From Octopus vulgaris (taxonomy: Eukaryota): a stretch of 64,000 nt of DNA. The notes under the pieces were generated by a model that ran no database searches, was not told where the DNA came from, and saw nothing but the letters and a program-made list of their open reading frames with translations. Position 1 is the first letter of the stretch; the number at the start of each line of letters is the position of its first letter. The translations under genes were made by a program, and so were the position numbers. Positions 3,178 through 60,328 of this stretch are shown piece by piece. The DNA is taken from positions 93,868,001 to 93,932,000 of the forward strand of contig OX597818.1 of the NCBI GenBank assembly GCA_951406725.2, in the 5' to 3' direction.

Positions 3178-3788
3178 TTTAATAGTATTAATAATTTGAT
3201 ACAATAGAGCACTCAATATAAATTCAGTATGTAATATTCGCATTGAAAATATATTTAACTAAATATTTATTTATCTCACGATGGTATTTTTTTGGATGGC
3301 ATTATATAGTGTTTTAGTAATGATATTATGTTCCATTGGGTAGTAGTACCTTGATAACGTTTGTGGGCAGCTGCTGATGATGCGTGATGTCTTTCTCAGA
3401 AATGTGACATTGCCTACATTTTCAGTCACATCTCAGGGTTCCAAGGGCTTCACTGTTTATTAGGTATTTGTAGCAATCTGTTGTTCTTTGGTTGCAAATA
3501 CACAACCCTCTCAAGGTGTGATCTGATGCAGTAGTCATGAGTCCAGGAGAGACTGTATTTCATTTTAATATTACAGTAGTCTTCAAGTCTTTGGAAAACA
3601 TACCTATGCATAGTCTTTTTCTGACATGCTGAGCATTTTCTTAAGTGTGTTAGCCAGCTGTTTTGTGGTTGTATGGGAGGTCATCAGGAAGAGACTGCTT
3701 CTTGAGAACCTCACTGCAGACATATAGGATGTTCATTATTTATGTTATTTACAATCGACAGATATTTGTCCTCATCTTGTTTGTTGTT

Positions 3789-3834
3789 AACACAACGTTT
3801 TGGTTGATATACCCTCCAGCCTTCATCAGGTGTC
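3789..3834 (-). ncRNA. Minimal type I hammerhead ribozyme, degenerate (GAAA changed to AAAA)
   Basis: Minus strand reads gacac-CTGATGA-a-ggctg-gagggtatat-caacc-aAAAC-GTT-gtgtt. Confidence 0.7.
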
Positions 3835-3920
3835 TTGGGGGAAATTTCGAACCTGGATTCTCATTTCGATGTTGTTGTTGTTGATGTTATTATTATTATT
3901 ATTACTATTATTATTATTAT

Positions 3921-4078
3921 TGAGTGAGAGAGCAGTTCATGCCATCAAAGTGACACTGGGGTAAAATATACGAAGCCCAATATACCCATCATGACTACCC
4001 GTCTGATAAAGGTACACCAGGCACATGCATCACAGCCAAGCCATGAGAGCCACTGCCTGGTACTGCATCAGGGCATTT
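3921..4078 (+). mobile_element. Short insertion within the (ATT)n tract, probably a retroelement 3' fragment
   Basis: Unique 158-bp sequence flanked by (ATT)n on both sides, splitting the PLE pLTR microsatellite. Confidence 0.5.
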
Positions 4079-4094
4079 ATTATTATTATTATTA

Positions 4095-4146
<52 letters not shown>

Positions 4147-4160
4147 TATTATTATTATTC

Positions 4161-4234
4161 AGGTCACTGTCTGGAATTGAACTTGGAATCTTGGGGTTAG
4201 TAGCCCGCAGTCTTAACCACTACGCCATATGCCC
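4161..4234 (-). other. tRNA-like Pol III promoter module at the end of the PLE ORF
   Basis: GGGCATA-TGGCGTAGTGG (A box), anticodon-like loop CTACTAA, GTTCAATTCC (B box). The acceptor stem is imperfect, so this is not a functional tRNA. Confidence 0.75.
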
Positions 4235-5439
4235 GTGGAGTAAATCTAATATTCTCCTATCCTTCCTTAATGTTGGTTTTCATGTGCTGTTCATATCTGC
4301 ACTCAGTCTGCTTAGGAAGTTGTTGAGTCCTAGAATATGTGCTGCTTCTTTTAGTTTTTGTATTTTCCAGTGGTGTTCTCTGTCTATTATTTTAACTTCA
4401 TCCCACAGGGGGAGGTGGTCTCCATTTTTCCATACATGATCAGCTATACCCAATTTATCAATATCTCCGTGTCACAGCTTTGGGATGTTCCTTTACCCTT
4501 ATTTTGAGGGGATGGCATGTTTCGCCTTTGTATAACCTACCACAGCTGCATGAGATGGAGTACATACAGTTCTTAGTCATATTCTCTTCTGTTGGTGGTT
4601 TTACTCGAAGGAGATATTTGCGAAGTGTTGTATTACTTCAAGAAAAACTAGTGACAGACACCCATCTAAAAGAACGCACTAGTATACCAATAAGAAACTT
4701 GATGGAAATATTGATCTTCTGCGTAGAAACTACCTACTTCAGTATGGACACTGATATATATCGACAAGAAGAGGGTTTAGCTATGGGTTTGCCATTATTA
4801 CTGATAATAGCCAATATATATATGGAATATTTTGAGAATTTGGATTTAGGATCAACATCACTAAAACCAACCCTATGGCTGCGATATGTTGAGGACACCT
4901 TCATACTCTGGTCCCACCAGGAAGATGTCCAAGTGCTGTTAGATCATGTGAACTCAATAAAGCCATCCATACAGTTCACAATGGAAAAAGAAAAAGACAA
5001 TCAGCTAGCATTTCTGGACGTATTAATAACATGCACCAAGTATGCATTCAGGACATTCGCATGCCGCAAGCCGACCTTCACTTGACGATACCTCAACTTC
5101 AACTCCCACCATCCATACAGTGTAAAGGAAGGGACTGCTTAGTGCCTAAAACATTGAGCAATGAATATAAGTAGCGATCGTGATACCCACCACAAAGAAA
5201 TGATCAAGCTCAGTAACAATCTATTAAGCAACAACTAACCCAAAAGCATACTCTCTACTCCAATTATGAAGAAAAGAGAGGATGAAACCAATAAACTGTC
5301 CACAGTCTGTCTACCCTATGTGAAAGGCCTCTCCGAAAAGATACAAAAGATATGCAGCCCATATGACATCAGGATAGTATTCAAAAGTAATACAACACTT
5401 TGGTCACTTTATAGAGTGTTTGAGTGTTGGATTAGTATC

Positions 5440-7715
5440 TGGAATGGGATAGCTTACCTTATGGGCAGGTAGAAGCTCTTTAACCTTGGTTGGTAATCTA
5501 CCTAGGAGAAGGAAATTTTTGAAATAAAACCTGAGGCCTTGGAAGTTCCTGGTTTTGTCAATTTTCATGTCACACCATGGGCCTATGGGTGGGGGTAGTG
5601 CAGTGCAAGCTACACCCATTGAAAATTATTCACCTGCACAGGTACTTCCTGTACACCAGATCTAAGTAAAATCATTGAATTGGTTGGTTGGCAGAAACCT
5701 AAAAATGCACTTGTAACTTACTCTAAAATGTCTCAAACAGATCCAGTAACTGGCAAAAATGCTTGAGAACATCAGGGGAACAGGTCTGGCTCAGCAGGTG
5801 TCCCAGTGTATCACAGGCTGGGCCCAGTCATCATCCTGCCACTGTGGTCAAACAATCTTCAAGAAAAAGTAAAAACAAACTTCCTTTGAATTTTTGGCTT
5901 TTGGAATGTGCACACACTTCTTGATGATAATTTCAACAAAGGCCAGAAAGGTGTACTGCACTTATTGCATGTGAGCTTAAGAAATATTCCCTTGATATAG
6001 TTGCGCTTTCTGAAACTCGTCTCTCTGGTGAGGGTCAAATAAATGAACCTACTTATGGATATACTATCTTTTGGAGAGGCATACTTGAAGGTCAGGGTAG
6101 AGAATCTGGTATGGGTTTGCTCTCCAGAATACATTAATAGCTTCCATTGTAGAGCTTCCAAGTGGTTTATCTGATTGGACCATATCATGCCGTATTAAAG
6201 TGACAAAAGATAGGTTTCTTACCGAGGTCAATATTTATGCACCAACAATGTCCCATTCTGATGAAACTGTAGGACAGTTTTATGATGATCTAGCACAATT
6301 ATTGAGGAAAGTACCAATTTCTGACAAGCTGGTCATATTGGGAAATTTCAATGCAAGAGTTGGAAAGAACTACATTTCATGGGCTGTTTTAGGTCAACAT
6401 GGTATGGGAAAATGTAATAAAAATGGAGTAGCTCTTTTGATGTTTTGTACTGAGAATAATCTAGTTGTTACCAACACTCTGTTTAAGCAGAAAAATAAAT
6501 ATAAAACCACCTGGATGCACCCAAGATCTAAGTACTGGCATCTCATAGATTATATTTTTATCAGGAAACATGATATGAAAGACATTTCTAGTATTTGGGC
6601 CATGAGAGGAGCAGAGAGCTGGACTGACCATCGTCTAATATGTGGAAAAATAAAATTTTCGATAATGCCAAAAAATTGACAGTCTAGTTCTAAGGTACCC
6701 AGAAAGTTAAATGTTGCAAACTTTAAATTATCAAGCAACTTGTAAAGATTCCAAGATGCTATAGAAAGTATCAACCTTGACCCAAACAATCTATGGGAAG
6801 ATTTCAAAACAAAAGTATTTCAGGCTGCAAGTTTGTCAGTGGGATTTAAATCACATAAGTTCAATGACTGGTTCTCAGACAGATCAGCAGAAATTCACGA
6901 TCTATTTTTAGAAAAACAAAACTTAAGTAATACACTTCTTTCTCAGTTATTGAACCCCAACTCAAACGAAGCATACAGAAAGGTGAAAAGGAAAGTGCAG
7001 ATTGCTCTAAGGAAAATTAAACAGGAAAGGTGGAATTATAGAACAAAAGGGGCACATGAAGCAGCTGATAGAAATGATGCCAAGGGTTTGTACTCTTATG
7101 TTAAAGAGGTATATGGCCCCAAATCTTCTTCAATAGCTCCAGTGAGAACATCAAATGTATGTTTGCTTCTGACTGACACTGCTTCTATTCATAAGCATTT
7201 TTCTGCACTTTTGAATAGACCATCATCTGCTGACATGAGGACGATAGAAAAAATTGAACACCCCCCAGTTATAGAAGAGATGGTATTTGAACCAACTCTA
7301 AATGACATTTATTTAGCTGTGAATAAGCTGAATAACAATAAGTCTCCAGGGTCTGATGGAATCTGTGCAGAAGTCTTGAAATATGAGGGTGACAAAATGT
7401 TTGAACTCTTAAATATATTAATTTGTCACTGTTGGAGAACTGAGAAAGTGCCTCAAGATTGGATTGATGCTATTTTAGTCTCCTTGTATGAATTGGGGCC
7501 AAAGGATCTGTGTGGTAACTTTCGTGGGATTTCTTTTTTGTCTGTGGTTGGAAAGGTACTTGCCCGCATTTTGTTAGAATGTTTAAATACCTTCATAGTT
7601 CCAAATATAGTGTCTGAGTCTCAGTGTGGTTTTTGTTCCTCCAGGGGCACAGCTGATTGTATCTTTACTATCAGACAATTACAAGGAAAGTGCATTGAAC
7701 AGAATCTTGTCTGTT
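5440..7715 (+). mobile_element. RTE-clade LINE (APE endonuclease plus RT N-half), frameshifted and 3'-truncated
   Basis: FWNV, ALSETR, IYAPT, LGNFNARVG, TTWMHPRSKYWHLIDY, TDHRL; KSPGSDGI, NFRGIS, ESQCGF. Confidence 0.92.
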
Positions 7716-7885
7716 AGCCACAAGACAATTTATATAAAGAGAGGAATGGAGACATTCTATGAGCTGTCATCCTATCATATATTCATTGTCTGTCTTGGAC
7801 AACATTATGCAACATGTCCTTTCCTCTCTAAGTCAGTGTGGGGAGATTTAGCGGTTATTTCTAACAGGTTAAATGTGTACACATA

Positions 7886-9048
7886 TTGGGTTGTCCGGAA
7901 AGTTCATGCCGATTTTTAAAGGAAAGAAAAAGGTCAATAAATACTTGCCATTACATTTTTAATCAACCAAATATGAACCATTTTGTTGCACAATGCGTCG
8001 CCATCTTTTCTTTAACTTGAAAATACCCTTTTCCCAGAATTGAGGTGGTTTCATCGTAAAGAATTCATCAAGCTATCTTTTTACGTCACCTAAGGAATTG
8101 AAATTTTTACTATTAAGACTATTCTGCAGAGACCTGAATAAGTGGAAATCCGAAGGAGCAATATCTGGTGAATATGGAGGGTGGGGTAACACATCCCAGC
8201 CGAGGTGCAGCAATTTTTGTCTGGTTCCCAAAGAAACGAGTGGTCTTGCATTATCATGTTGGAAAACAACACCCTTCCTGTTGGCCAATTCTGGACATTT
8301 CTCTTGAATTGCTGCTTTTAACTCATCCAGTTGTGTGCAGTATTTCTCAAAATTAATTGTCTGGTTACTTGGGAGAAGCTCATAGTACAGAATTCCTTTC
8401 CAATCCCACCAGACACAAAGTAAGACTTTTTTAGGGTGAAGACTCGCTTTTGGGGTGGCTAAGGGTGGCTCATGTTGCTTACTCCAGGATTGCTTTCTCT
8501 GAACATTTTGGTAGATAATCCATTTCTCATCACCTGTCACAATTTGCTTTAAAAAAGGTGTGTTTTCATTCCGTTTATAAAGCGAATCACAGATGGAAAT
8601 GCAATCCAAAAGGTTCTTCTCACTCAACTCGTGGTACCCAAACATCGTAGCGATTTGCGTACCCAAGCTTTACCAGGTGCACATGAATGATGGATTTTGA
8701 TAGGTTGAGACTTTCTGCCAATTCTTGGGTTGTGCAATGTGGGTATTCTCAATTAATGACTTGATTTGGTCATCATCTGTAGTGGATGGGATGCATGATT
8801 GCTCTTTAACAATAAGGCTACAATCTCCAGCTTGGAACCTTGCAAACCACTTCCGTACAGTTCTTTCAGATAAAGATACAGAAACATCACTGTAAACTGT
8901 GTATATTTCTTTGGTTGCTTGCGAGGCATTTTCCCTTTATGGAAAAAGAAAAGCATCAAGTGCCGAAAATGAACTTTCTTATCTTCCATTTTAAAGGGTT
9001 ACAGAATTAACACAGGTTATAGGAACATAAACCTTGTTCCACGAAAAG
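7886..9048 (-). mobile_element. Mariner (DD34D) transposon, frameshifted, one TIR retained
   Basis: IVTGDEKW, FQHDNARP and HPPYSPDIAPSDFHLF. TA followed by TIR ttgggttgtccggaaagtt at 7886. The other end is replaced by a SINE. Confidence 0.93.
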
Positions 9049-25148: not shown

Positions 25149-25413
25149 TATTCTATAATTTTCACAGACAATAAATACGATATTATTTGTTATTGTCTGA
25201 GATTTTGGTGTAATTTGAGAGGATAATACAAAAGTTATGGATGATTTAGTGATTTACTGCAAAACCCATGGCGGCCAAAATGATCAGAACGGTTGCTTTT
25301 ACTCCATGTTTTAATATATTTAACCGTCGAACTCAAATGTTTTGAATTTGTTTACGTGACAGTTCGTTTACTAAACATTAGTAAGAATATCTGCAGTGTA
25401 CTTTGTTAATATA

Positions 25414-26454
25414 ATGCCACTTACTCCGTTACCAATTCGTCAGCAGATTATTAAGCTTCGAAAGAAGGATAATTTAAGTATTAGGTCTATTGCAAAGATT
25501 GTTAACAAGTCAAAAAGTGTTGTTCACAGTATACTTAAGGTCTACGATGATTGTGGTTCGTGTGAAGCAAGAAGGTCTACAGGTAAGCCAAAAAAAACGA
25601 CCACGAGAGATCGTGCTATGGTAAAGTTGGTTAAAAAGGACAGATTTAAAACTGCTGCTGTTTTTCGGGAAACGAGCATTGTACTGAAGAAAACTTTATC
25701 TCAAAAAACTGTGTCTCGTCCTTTAGTTGAACATGACCTACAAGCAAGAGCACCTGCAGTGAAGCCACTGATTAGCTCCAAGAATAAAAAGTGTCGTCTT
25801 ACCTTTGCAACCGAACATGTGTTGTGGTCTCAAGAAAAATGGCAAACGGTGCATTTCAGTGATGAATTTAAGTCTATGTTATTTGGCTCAGATGGGAAAA
25901 GGTACGTTCGTCGAAAAGCAGGTGAAAAATTGTCACCTAAATGCCTTAAGACTAGTATTAAATTCAGTGGAGGAAGTGTCATGGTTTGGGGGATGATATC
26001 TGGAGATGTTGTGGGCCCTTTACTGCGATTACATGGAAAGGTAAATGCAGGAGTTTATAAACAACTTGTAAAAGATCATGTCTTGCCTGTGCTGAGAAAT
26101 TCAACTAAGCGACCACCCATATTCATGCAGGACAATGCCCCATATCACAAGGCTAAGGTGGTCATGAACTTCCTCAAGGCTGAAAAGGTTATTGTTATGG
26201 ATTGGCCTGCTCAAAGCCCAGACCTCAATCCTATTGAAAATGTGTGGAATATTCTAGGAGAACGTTTGAAAGCCAGAAATCCTAAAACAACCGAGCAATT
26301 ATGGAATGCCCTTCAGGAAGAATGGAATAAGATCATCCAGCAAGAAATTGAAAATTTAATTTCCCCATGCAGTCGAAAATGTCAAACTTTGATTGAAGCT
26401 AAAGGGCTTCACACTAAATATGAAATAATTCCAGCATTCTCTGTCACTTTTTGA
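25414..26454 (+). CDS. Tc1 transposase (DD34E), uninterrupted ORF
   Basis: HFSDEF, VMVWG, FMQDNAPYH and WPAQSPDLNPIENVW, with 34 residues between D and E. HTH-like N-terminus. Confidence 0.92.
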   Translation: MPLTPLPIRQQIIKLRKKDNLSIRSIAKIVNKSKSVVHSILKVYDDCGSCEARRSTGKPKKTTTRDRAMVKLVKKDRFKTAAVFRETSIVLKKTLSQKTVSRPLVEHDLQARAPAVKPLISSKNKKCRLTFATEHVLWSQEKWQTVHFSDEFKSMLFGSDGKRYVRRKAGEKLSPKCLKTSIKFSGGSVMVWGMISGDVVGPLLRLHGKVNAGVYKQLVKDHVLPVLRNSTKRPPIFMQDNAPYHKAKVVMNFLKAEKVIVMDWPAQSPDLNPIENVWNILGERLKARNPKTTEQLWNALQEEWNKIIQQEIENLISPCSRKCQTLIEAKGLHTKYEIIPAFSVTF

Positions 26455-49874: not shown

Positions 49875-49966
49875 AGTTGAAAGTAAATTGTTATTATTAA
49901 ATCATTTAGTTTCATTTCTCTACATTGAGGATAAACTTCAGGTGACCAGAATGAATAACACGGAAA

Positions 49967-51373
49967 ATGATGTTTTCGAGTTGTTATGGAAATCTCTGCT
50001 CACAACCTGAATACATGGTTGATCTAGATGTTCTAAATGAGGAATTACACAAAACTACAGGACTAAATGAATGCAAGAATTTTACAGAAGATAATATTGG
50101 ACATATTGATTCTCGAGACGACGATCGCAAAAATGCTACTGATAATCATATTGGTAATGTGAGGAAAATGATTCAAATAGATGTTAAGGAAGGCCAAAAC
50201 CATGACCAGTTAAACGATGATGATGAAACAGCAAAACATGACTATTCAAAAGACGAGAAAACTAAGAGATATTGTGTATGTGAAGTAGCAGACGATAAGA
50301 AGGTGTATGTAAACAACAGATTGAAATGTAAGACACTGAATGGAGAAAAGTCTGTCAGCCCTGACAACCATCCATTTAAATTGAACAAGAGAAGCGCAAA
50401 ATTAGATAACTCTTTACCAAAGAAAGACAGGGAAAGTTTTGCGATGAACAAAAATTGGAAAATCAAAGGAGGAAAAATAAATTCGATATCAAAAATAAAC
50501 CCACATCGCATTAATACAGCCACGGAAATGATTCAAAATAGTAAGACAAATTTAACTTACTCGTTGTTTTATATTCCGAAATGTTCAAGAAAGGAACAAC
50601 TAGAAAATAATGATGAAATTTCGTCAATTAGAAGACCATTTGAGGAATGCCAAAATTTCACAACACACGAACCCCACCTCAGTATGTCGTCATGTGAATA
50701 CAGCATTTCGTTGGTAGACATGTCATATAAAAGATCTGTAAGAAAAACAGCTTATCCTCCCAGAAGAATTTCTGAAAACAAAGTTTCAGCGCCTCTGAGA
50801 CGTCAGAGGTTTTCATATCCACAAAATAATAATAATTCAGCAAGCCCAAAATCCAAGCAAGGCCGTTCACGTTCACAGCAATATACTGAATTAGAAGATT
50901 TAGAGAAACTTGCGGAATTAGTGGCACCTCGCTCTACTCCAGACATACCTGTACTATATAGTCCACAATATGCACCAGAATATTATGTCGATATAAACCC
51001 ATATTCACGTCGCGGTACACGACGGCGGTCACGAAAATCACTGGAGAATCAATATTATGTAGTGGCACCACAGCCATATCAATGTGTACCAGAATATCAT
51101 CTCGATATAGAGTCAGAATATATTCTTGAGGTAGGGCCAGAATTTTGTCTTGATGTCGAGCCAGAATATCCACGGCGAGTTTCACAGAAATTTGCTACAT
51201 CACGTACATCAAATGTACAAGAACCCCCCCCCCCATCACTTCACATAAGCATTTCCTCAGAAAGGCAGCGGCCAAATTACGATAAAATACGAGGTACATA
51301 TCATTGTCGTCACTGGTCTTTACTACAGAGTACAGATCCAATGGTTTTGCAAGCCTTTAGAAGGATAAATTAA
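49967..51373 (+). CDS. Intronless uncharacterised protein, paralog 1 (468 aa; acidic N-terminus, Arg/Ser/Tyr/Pro-rich C-terminus)
   Basis: A long open frame in AT-rich DNA, alignable with 58526-60328 and sharing the C-terminal stop context (F-R/K-R-I-N*). AATAAA at 51542. The true start is uncertain. Confidence 0.7.
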   Translation: MMFSSCYGNLCSQPEYMVDLDVLNEELHKTTGLNECKNFTEDNIGHIDSRDDDRKNATDNHIGNVRKMIQIDVKEGQNHDQLNDDDETAKHDYSKDEKTKRYCVCEVADDKKVYVNNRLKCKTLNGEKSVSPDNHPFKLNKRSAKLDNSLPKKDRESFAMNKNWKIKGGKINSISKINPHRINTATEMIQNSKTNLTYSLFYIPKCSRKEQLENNDEISSIRRPFEECQNFTTHEPHLSMSSCEYSISLVDMSYKRSVRKTAYPPRRISENKVSAPLRRQRFSYPQNNNNSASPKSKQGRSRSQQYTELEDLEKLAELVAPRSTPDIPVLYSPQYAPEYYVDINPYSRRGTRRRSRKSLENQYYVVAPQPYQCVPEYHLDIESEYILEVGPEFCLDVEPEYPRRVSQKFATSRTSNVQEPPPPSLHISISSERQRPNYDKIRGTYHCRHWSLLQSTDPMVLQAFRRIN

Positions 51374-58461: not shown

Positions 58462-58534
58462 AGTTGAAAGTGAATCATTTTTCAATCACTGAGTTTCATT
58501 TCTCTGCATTGAGAGTCAATTTGAGGTGACCAGA

Positions 58535-60328
58535 ATGAATACTACAGAGACTTATGTTTTTTCGAAGTGTTATGAGAACCTCTGTTCCGAAACTGAAAAA
58601 ATGGCTGACCATTCGCAATATCCAGATGTTCTAAATGAGGGATTACACAAAACTACAGAACTGAATGAAGGCGAAGATTTTACAGAAGAAAATACTGGAC
58701 ATATTGATTCTCGAGACGACGATCGTGAAAATAATACTGAGAATCATATTGGTGATGTGAGGGAAATGATTCAAATAGATGTTAAGGAAGGTCAAGACAA
58801 TGACAAGTTAAACGATGATGATGAAACAGCAAAACATGACTATTCAAAAGAGGAGAAAACTAAGAGAAGTGCATGTGAAGTAGCAGACGATAAGAACATG
58901 TATGTAAACAACAGATTGGAATGTAAGACACTGAATGGAGAAAAGGATGTCTGCCCTGACAAACATCCAGTAAAATTGAACAAGAGAAGCGCAGAATTAG
59001 ATAACTCTTTACCGAAGGAAGACGGGGAAAATTTTGCAACGAACAAAAAATGCATAATCAAAGGTGGAAAAATATCTTCCATATCAAGAATAAACCCACA
59101 TCGCATTAATACAGCCACGGAAAGGATTCAAAATAGTAAGACAAATTTAACAAGGTCGTTCTATATTCCTAAACGTTCAAGGCAGGAACAACCAGAAAAT
59201 AATGATGAAATTTCGTCAACTAGAAGACCATTTGAGGAATGGCAAAATTTCACAGCACACGAACAACACCTCAGTATACCAAAACCATATTTTCACCGTA
59301 TGTCGTCATGTGAATACAGAATTTCGGTGGTAGACATGTCATATTACAGATCTGAAAGAAAAACAATTCATCCTCCTGGAAGAATTTCTGAAAGCAAAGT
59401 TTCAGCGCCTCTCCGGTGTCGGAGTGTTTCATATTTACAGAATAACAATAATTCAGCAAGCCCAAAATCCAAGCAAGGCCTTTCACGTCCACGGCGATAT
59501 AGTCACTTACGAGATTCACTGGAACTTGCTAAATTACGATGGGCATCAAACAACCGGGGCTCTCCCTTCACTGCACAACCACATACTTCACGATATGCAT
59601 CAGAATATCACCACAATGTAAGACCACCACACGTATACAGAACTGCACTGAGAGTTGATAGACGACCTCCACGATATGTATCAGACTATCACATTCATGT
59701 AGAGCCATCTAATTCCAAGCATAACTGTTCACGTTCACAGCAATATAGTCAATTAGGAGATCTGAAACTTACTAGATCACAATGGGAAGCAATAGTACGG
59801 CGCCTTCGCTCCACTGAACAACCACATAGTTCCCGATATGTACCAGACTATCACATTCATGTAGAGCCATCTAATTCCAAGCATGACCGTTCACGTTCAC
59901 AGCAATATAGTCAATTAGGAGATCTGAAACTTACTAAATCACAATGGGCATCAATAGTACGGCGCTTTCGCTCCACTGAACAACCAGACTATGACATTAA
60001 TGTAGAGCCATTTCAACCATCTAGTCGATCACCAGAATCACTGAAAGATACTAGATCACATCAACTACATAGTCCAGAGCTATCATATCTACATCGCGAT
60101 TCACTGGAACGAATTGCATCAAATGTACGGCATCCAATCTCCTCTTCACATAACCGTGCGGGTCGTCGTATCTTCACAAAAGCAGCGACCAAATTACGAG
60201 ATAAAGTACGCAGTATTTTTGGTAAAAAACGTACATGGGCGCCAGACACATCATTTCGTCCTCGTCGCAGTTCTTTACCAAAGAGTACCGATCCCGCGGT
60301 TCTTAAAACCTTTAAAAGAATAAATTAA
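58535..60328 (+). CDS. Intronless uncharacterised protein, paralog 2 (about 600 aa, internal 54-aa repeat)
   Basis: Open frame of about 1.8 kb, paralogous to 49967-51373, with frame-preserving indels downstream of the shared ATGG. AATAAA at 60501. No recognisable domain. Confidence 0.72.
   Translation: MNTTETYVFSKCYENLCSETEKMADHSQYPDVLNEGLHKTTELNEGEDFTEENTGHIDSRDDDRENNTENHIGDVREMIQIDVKEGQDNDKLNDDDETAKHDYSKEEKTKRSACEVADDKNMYVNNRLECKTLNGEKDVCPDKHPVKLNKRSAELDNSLPKEDGENFATNKKCIIKGGKISSISRINPHRINTATERIQNSKTNLTRSFYIPKRSRQEQPENNDEISSTRRPFEEWQNFTAHEQHLSIPKPYFHRMSSCEYRISVVDMSYYRSERKTIHPPGRISESKVSAPLRCRSVSYLQNNNNSASPKSKQGLSRPRRYSHLRDSLELAKLRWASNNRGSPFTAQPHTSRYASEYHHNVRPPHVYRTALRVDRRPPRYVSDYHIHVEPSNSKHNCSRSQQYSQLGDLKLTRSQWEAIVRRLRSTEQPHSSRYVPDYHIHVEPSNSKHDRSRSQQYSQLGDLKLTKSQWASIVRRFRSTEQPDYDINVEPFQPSSRSPESLKDTRSHQLHSPELSYLHRDSLERIASNVRHPISSSHNRAGRRIFTKAATKLRDKVRSIFGKKRTWAPDTSFRPRRSSLPKSTDPAVLKTFKRIN

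Follow-up and report, generated by a model that had tools for sequence, protein, structure and literature searches.

The combination of a tRNA-derived head, a Penelope ORF and a hammerhead motif is a real, family-level structure in the genome of Octopus vulgaris and gives a Penelope-like element of an apparently unreported make-up, while each of these ingredients has a precedent. The unit runs from the ORF and its stop codon through a spacer, the head and an (AAT)n tract to the ATG, with the hammerhead lying in the first codons; its non-coding part is made up of the 29-nt spacer, the head, the (AAT)n tract and a leader of ~22 nt. The copy under study lies in a window, by which we mean the whole analyzed stretch of 64,000 nucleotides (positions 93868001-93932000 of contig OX597818.1), and the genome that was searched comprises 2.8 Gb in 227 contigs. 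This copy and a second family end in the same window are laid out as follows:

4637..5400, plus strand: RT region, an inverted 5′ piece of the Penelope element (family ORF nt 1359-2122; 95% to the family majority).
4241..4637, minus strand: 3′ end of the ORF with the GIY-YIG endonuclease region (family ORF nt 2108-2506) and a premature TGA at 4282-4280.
4235..4240, minus strand: 6-nt leftover of the 32-nt stop and spacer, with a net 26 nt gone, including the family stop codon.
4160..4234, minus strand: tRNA-derived head of 75 nt (A box 4227-4217, B box 4182-4174); a degenerate cloverleaf and no tRNA gene.
4079..4159, minus strand: upstream portion of the (AAT)n tract.
3922..4078, minus strand: later insertion, foreign to the Penelope unit, of an unrelated repeat whose 557 nt are here reduced to the initial 41 and the terminal 117 (98-100% to the L073 copy).
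3865..3921, minus strand: downstream (AAT)n/(AAC)n portion of the tract and the partly deleted leader ahead of the ATG.
3735..3864, minus strand: family ORF nt 1-129 (the "pLTR body"), with the ATG at 3864 and a tail-less 3′ end 58 nt beyond the ribozyme cut site.
3789..3834, minus strand: putative minimal type I hammerhead composed of stem I, a core in which A9 is followed by an additional nucleotide, a stem II of 5 bp and a palindromic stem III, laid out as described in PMC4209133.
42288..42443, plus strand: second family end, ORF nt 1-156, tail-bearing and without a head.

The window copy was compared with an ORF-linked set, in which 110 loci were narrowed to 31 with the whole endonuclease region adjoining the head, two of these being the window itself and 29 being others. 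The first-pass annotation had reported a minus-strand frame (...KEAAHILG...MNST-stop-KPTLRKDRRILDLLHGHMA-stop), which indeed reads in this way, and had taken its internal TGA (4282-4280) for a decayed Trp codon, an interpretation that is borne out by the TGG found in 25 of the 29 other ORF-linked copies. The final TAG (4222-4220) does fall inside the A box (4227-4217), but it is not where the ORF of the family normally ends: the family stop is a TAA 29 nt upstream of the head, which is kept in 25 of the 29 other copies, deleted in three and substituted in one, and the window copy reads through into the A-box TAG because a net 26 nt, family stop included, are missing from its spacer. Similarly, the reported succession of (AAT)n and a hammerhead after the head stands as to its order, but the tract is split by the 157-nt repeat insertion (4078-3922) and the hammerhead, with a predicted cut between 3794 and 3793, carries an A (3801) at core position G12, the catalytic base, along with a stem II mismatch (3804), and is therefore predicted to be dead. 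The window copy is an ordinary dead, ORF-linked and 5′-inverted element and no solo unit. Small internal deletions are frequent in copies of this family (in the spacer, e.g., L001-L030), and an identical 10-nt spacer deletion between short direct repeats is seen in L005, L012, L018 and the window.

Other repeats were encountered in the window and in the (AAT)n tracts. The 557-nt repeat, of which L073 is a full copy, is found in (AAT)n tracts, often those of this Penelope family, with 11 matches in 9 of 60 evenly placed 10-kb stretches of the genome, and a simple core pattern detected no hammerhead in it. Several pieces that we take to be of Dong/R4-like LINEs (L074, L090, L259, L271, L302 and L320 are such pieces) are likewise inserted into (AAT)n tracts, including that of the tRNA-headed family. 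Elsewhere in the window are what is presumably a decayed RTE-like LINE with endonuclease and RT frames (5859-7717, plus strand), presumable mariner-like transposase pieces and a 359-aa open frame of a Tc1-like transposase (8073-8997, minus strand, and 25375-26451, plus strand), as well as two related long open frames of 472 and 611 aa (49955-51370 and 58493-60325, both plus strand), the second of which features a 162-nt duplication.

Judging from its sequence, the family is a Penelope/Poseidon-type retrotransposon. Its ORF of ~833 aa (~2.5 kb) codes for an RT followed by a GIY-YIG domain in a single frame, as in EN+ Penelope-like elements (PLEs), and copies display the inverted 5′-truncated partner and the one-sided tail of 30-40 nt that mark PLE insertions. 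The family protein matches Pfam RVT_1 with E=2.7e-6, below the curated cut-off; the GIY-YIG part was identified by its motifs, with no Pfam match for GIY-YIG; and the protein has 2914 homologues, many of them 825-855 aa long. A linker finger of the form CX2-5CxxC between RT and EN is not visible in the protein P0001. The sequence reads as a minimal type I hammerhead, with the extra nucleotide after A9, G10.1-C11.1 and a palindromic 15.2-16.2. Near ORF nt 390, an A-run at first suggested a frameshift, which was discarded, as 12 readable copies split into in-frame and out-of-frame ones and the relatives have one ORF. A distant Poseidon-like protein used as the query retrieved only the window's family among the 30 loci examined. 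The longest stop-free frame is a natural one of 569 aa in L165; given the absence of an intact full-length ORF among the scored matches, the unit may describe a past state.

That the tRNA module is integral to the element and no chance SINE insertion, as originally suggested, is upheld by the junction search, wherein all 40 scored matches (from 3760 candidates, the window included) span the ORF end and the head, and copies of the element lacking the module were not seen among them. The module could also have been the head of an ordinary SINE with an unrelated body; however, no alternative common body emerged in 30 loci chosen by the head alone: in 24 the hammerhead body lies downstream on the same strand, and in the remaining six (AAT)n is followed by differing sequence, with an inverted family partner in five of the six. 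In L022 and L401 the ORF end, head and ORF start follow each other in tandem, while in L214 and L224 the hammerhead body and its tail run on in frame into the N-terminal part of the ORF; P0004 (847 aa, 55% identical) has the same motif near its start. The hammerhead body being continuous with the start of the ORF, the "pLTR body" is therefore coding, like that of the anole Poseidon (PMC11167929), and, as the hammerhead overlaps the first codons, the head sits at the place expected of the promoter, which is the one taken by the internal promoter in Drosophila Penelope (PMC2377424).

Pol III usually starts at a purine ~10-20 nt before the A box and terminates at runs of four or more Ts, and the consensus of its A and B boxes is known. 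The head matches the SINEBase description of a SINE-type head (tRNA-, 7SL- or 5S-derived, with internal A and B boxes), and among family copies the A box is intact in 100 of 129 and the B box in 82 of 129. Aligned with host tRNAs, the window head scores 57.5 (300 shuffles: mean 33.5, maximum 48), and a better-kept head copy scores 67.5, coming closest to Arg among the 10 isotypes sampled, with Cys, Ala, Ser and Thr close behind; the idea of a tRNA-Thr origin was dropped, as the comparison with these isotypes did not bear it out. The stems of the head are degenerate, and neither ARAGORN nor Rfam calls a tRNA at the window head; Rfam also returns no hammerhead in the window, only low-complexity or chance matches.

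The 5′ ends of the copies point to a sharp boundary at this head. They were surveyed in 96 of the first 100 listed matches of a body 25-mer on contig C1, chosen blind to the upstream sequence. Sixteen of these arms end in the body and 26 in (AAT)n or at an interruption, so that 42 of the 96 stop short of the head, and 54 reach it; of the latter, 17 end inside the head, 27 at -7..+6, two in the spacer and eight in or beyond the ORF end. The 27 ends compare with 2.1 expected from the rate inside the head. They include three that had first been placed at -14/-19 and were manually reassigned to -7, being fold-backs in which the inverted partner mimics the spacer, and arms belonging to one inverted pair are not independent. 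Per nucleotide at risk, ends amount to 0.0063 inside the head, 0.080 at its start and 0.0023 upstream. In a set of 91 heads (out of 145 in total), from loci not selected by the ORF, 57 end at 0..-10, 15 go to -12 or beyond, and 19 are joined to a perfect inverted copy of themselves by folding back, at 16 junctions. The boundary coincides with G(-6), which precedes the A box by 13 nt.

Longer copies and template jumps were inspected for the same boundary. Among 30 loci chosen by ORF nt ~160-345, a same-strand head lies upstream in five: two begin at +4 and -2 against unrelated DNA and cover 1065 and 498 nt of the ORF without a repeat at the 3′ side, another is a read-through from the ORF end, and the last two stop within the head, each at an inverted junction. 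L405 and L407 have template jumps that land at -6/-7; counted against a start at -6 are the jump in L394, which lands inside the head, L022 and L401, which read through the head from upstream, and the 42 arms that stop short of the head. The pile-up of short-copy 5′ ends is thus supported as lying where Pol III would start, and the head is probably a Pol III promoter with its RNA start at about -6. Across L384-L412, many copies consist of a 5′ piece of the ORF followed by a second piece with the start of the ORF or the tail, a layout that looks as if the RT had leapt from a template's 5′ end to a site lying 300-600 nt inside the ORF. Two jumps at the hammerhead cut site were dismissed as evidence of cleavage on account of a shared 5-nt microhomology, and ORF pieces ending near nt 350-420 (12 of 30 loci) were not retained as a sign of a terminator, since they may merely reflect the edge of the query.

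In the reading that we consider probable, Pol III would start at G(-6), with the A box following 13 nt later, and would meet no TTTT in the unit, and the RT of the element would initiate internally on this RNA, at two positions beyond the hammerhead, in the way demonstrated for the anole element. Whatever RNA is begun at a head would then give a ~270-nt solo copy ending at the transcription start site, and two cDNAs, one with and one without a tail, would join head-to-head, often via a small TGCCC/GGGCA palindrome exposed at the start-site end; RNAs begun at an upstream head and run through the ORF would result in ORF-linked copies like that of the window. A further and less certain possibility is that Pol III, using the captured tRNA promoter, also makes the full-length mRNA, that this uncapped RNA with its 2.5-kb ORF is translated and that internal priming near its 5′ end has produced the ~50,000 SINE-like solo copies.

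The 5′ ends might instead be read with the head as a passenger, i.e., a SINE head captured long ago in the 3′ UTR and overlapped by a Pol II promoter, so that the pile-up would mark a Pol II start or a snap-back of the RT at the small palindrome. We consider this unlikely, even though the promoter of Drosophila Penelope is described as TATA-less, DPE-type, internal and located in the pLTR (PMC2377424), the palindrome flanks +1, fold-back junctions are present, L022 and L401 read through, and the RNA-seq data hold nothing specific. Against it speak the position of the boundary 13 nt before a consensus A box, with the B box at tRNA spacing, and the recurrence of the pile-up in arms without an inverted partner (8 of 19 end at -7..+6, with 0.65 expected). 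Moreover, a template running further upstream would be expected to leave the longer spacer-type palindrome at the joints, but this is kept in 0 junctions among the 91 heads from loci not chosen for the ORF. The lack of a T4 run in the unit is a further point against a passenger head.

Specifically, at a depth of 11-252, T3 runs number 13 in the majority ORF and T4 runs 0, against 2.9 T4 expected by synonymous shuffle (P=0.025) and 4.3 by base shuffle (P=0.007), and the spacer and head are likewise without T4. A control head-less Penelope family of the same genome and the same T content (22.9%), which belongs to a different clade with twice the Phe content, displays 9 T4 in 2325 nt (7.9 expected), a contrast to the 0 of the headed family with p=0.0014, and 17 T4 per 4271-nt unit; no A/B-box pair was found in this control family. 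T4 runs are also low in seven Dong-like ORFs (8 observed vs 14.3 expected), with 6 vs 4.2 expected in two Gypsy-like ORFs and 7 vs 7.1 in one RTE-like ORF. The absence of T4 is thus compatible with Pol III transcribing the element at full length, but is no more than modest support for it. Three RNA-seq runs of one study under the same species label (sampled at ~6% of each run) cover the family on both strands at equal depth, and neither starts nor ends of reads accumulate on the head; in two of the runs, coverage of the ORF declines in the direction of its 5′ end, paralleling genomic copy number. This pattern fits passive transcription of old copies and is uninformative as to Pol III. The control head-less family, seen in L381 (G000:C1:27841000-27850900) and L382, is itself young, with identical 4271-nt tandem units and many intact copies, and is Neptune-like, as we presume from its motifs; its 775-aa RT/endonuclease frame and a 454-aa one, read in a different phase, overlap by ~90 nt, pointing to a frameshift or an intron.

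The short, ORF-less units with a head and a hammerhead, which the first-pass annotation had envisaged, constitute the majority of the family. In 60 evenly placed 10-kb stretches (600 kb) there are 11 loci with head or body and 0 with an endonuclease or RT probe, from which we estimate ~50,000 loci (point value ~51,000; 26,000-92,000), and a 25-mer taken from the body is matched exactly 9,881 times in the genome vs 0 for its control. Among 30 loci chosen by the body alone, the endonuclease region lies within 1.5 kb in three, one being the query. An inverted partner accompanies 65 of the 96 arms, the copies being solo or head-to-head. One may thus ask whether the short copies form an independent Penelope-mobilized SINE lineage with its own masters, derived from the pLTR: most loci are without an ORF (8 of the 96 arms reach it), and internal RT initiation would allow the re-copying of any intact solo copy. 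However, of 18 variable sites, 17 show no difference between short and ORF-linked copies and one does at p=0.024. Two or more subfamilies can be told apart by three linked non-CpG sites, and their alleles are present in both classes; non-CpG divergence is alike, at 4.7% (56 short copies) and 5.1% (58 ORF-linked copies). With alleles and age common to both classes, the short unit does not hold up as a separate non-autonomous family, and such a lineage appears improbable; it is the end of an autonomous PLE and not, like a SINE, a separate family relying on a LINE. Ohshima and Okada reportedly described three octopus retroposons as tRNA-derived SINEs in 1994, and a SINE entry for the short unit may exist already, either in Repbase/Dfam or as one of these retroposons.

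The 3′ ends bear on the role of the hammerhead, whose core is intact in 47 of 109 copies and whose self-cleavage is predicted to occur after ORF nt 70. In 365 alignments, with overlapping loci kept, the 3′ end falls at ORF nt 120-129 in 162 and at 150-164 in 147, i.e., ~55 or ~85 nt beyond the cut site, and at 65-74 in 3. Thus, the hammerhead does not set the ends of the copies, and the "ribozyme-terminated" RNA of the original proposal finds no counterpart in them (309 of 365 ends in the two classes, 3 near the cut). In inverted pairs, a tail arm is joined to a no-tail arm in 55 of 62 arm views, pairs anchored on both sides being counted twice. The anole Poseidon is described as having two internal RT start sites and as inserting independently of hammerhead cleavage (PMC11167929), and a one-sided tail has been described in PMC8557442; the bimodal 3′ ends of the octopus family match the anole start sites and the one-sided tail, which contradicts a ribozyme-terminated template. 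A mobile unit in the form of a ~190-nt Pol III transcript that the hammerhead has cleaved, in the manner of a retrozyme or the Schistosoma Sm-alpha, would have the head and the hammerhead in the right order and a core that is often intact, but is highly improbable given the three ends near the cut site, a stem III that needs a second copy, copies that are dispersed or head-to-head without tandem arrays, and an anole element that inserts without need for cleavage (PMC11167929).

The proposed Pol III-driven Penelope unit can be placed among several known systems. It is like the Penelope/Poseidon PLEs, as described for Poseidon_Ac of Anolis (PMC11167929) and the Penelope of D. virilis (PMC2377424), in its single ORF with an RT followed by a GIY-YIG at the C terminus, in an ORF start that overlaps the hammerhead, in two 3′-end classes ~30 nt apart, in inverted 5′-truncated partners and in the expectation of a promoter in the pLTR. 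It differs in that its UTR is nearly all A/B-box head and (AAT)n, whereas the Drosophila Penelope promoter is of the DPE type and is accompanied by an intron (PMC2377424); the consulted portions of these two descriptions mention no tRNA head. Hammerheads as such were already known from PLEs (PMC4209133). The Schistosoma Sm-alpha/Sj-alpha likewise feature a Pol III-type promoter followed by a hammerhead; however, as portrayed in PMC6765202, they are non-coding tandem units freed by cleavage, with no autonomous partner stated in the portion consulted, while the octopus sequence is the end of a protein-coding element whose copies extend past the cut site. Non-LTR retrozymes are short hammerhead units akin to PLE pLTRs and are thought to use PLE enzymes, but they are defined as tandem repeats with a hammerhead per unit (PMC7229834; bioRxiv 10.64898/2026.07.22.740005). 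The octopus family is dispersed or head-to-head; head-to-tail repeats each with a hammerhead were not found in it, and partial tandems occur only with ORF pieces. In the consulted text of the retrozyme preprint (bioRxiv 10.64898/2026.07.22.740005), "tRNA" has 0 occurrences.

Small-RNA-derived Pol III promoters in a terminal repeat are also seen in the Helenus, Ajax and Cassandra TRIMs ("TRIMp3"), which are, per PMC10886601, non-autonomous LTR elements with PBS, PPT and TSDs and with no ORF or ribozyme; the octopus element, with its RT/GIY-YIG ORF and PLE-type ends, falls outside this class. It shares with tRNA-derived SINEs, as characterized in PMC3531059, the A/B-box tRNA head, a length <700 bp and tens of thousands of dispersed copies, but differs from them in having a PLE and not a LINE as its partner, an internal simple repeat, inverted pairs and no separate lineage. 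We found no report of a tRNA-headed or Pol III-driven PLE in the open-access literature.

Thus, the unit joins three things that are usually separate: a SINE-type promoter, a Penelope coding unit and a hammerhead. Autonomous retroelements use Pol II, as a rule stated in PMC3531059. If Pol III does make the mRNA of this element, it would be an exception to that rule, with a SINE and its own LINE, as it were, within one transcription unit, and cap-independent translation would be directly testable. Even under a weaker reading, internal priming by Penelope would generate SINE-like repeats without a LINE partner, a route that may account for some of what is listed as unclassified "SINE" sequence in genomes of this kind. 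Furthermore, the sharp 5′ boundary preserves in the genome a seldom-seen trace of the way in which head-to-head insertions of Penelope are joined.
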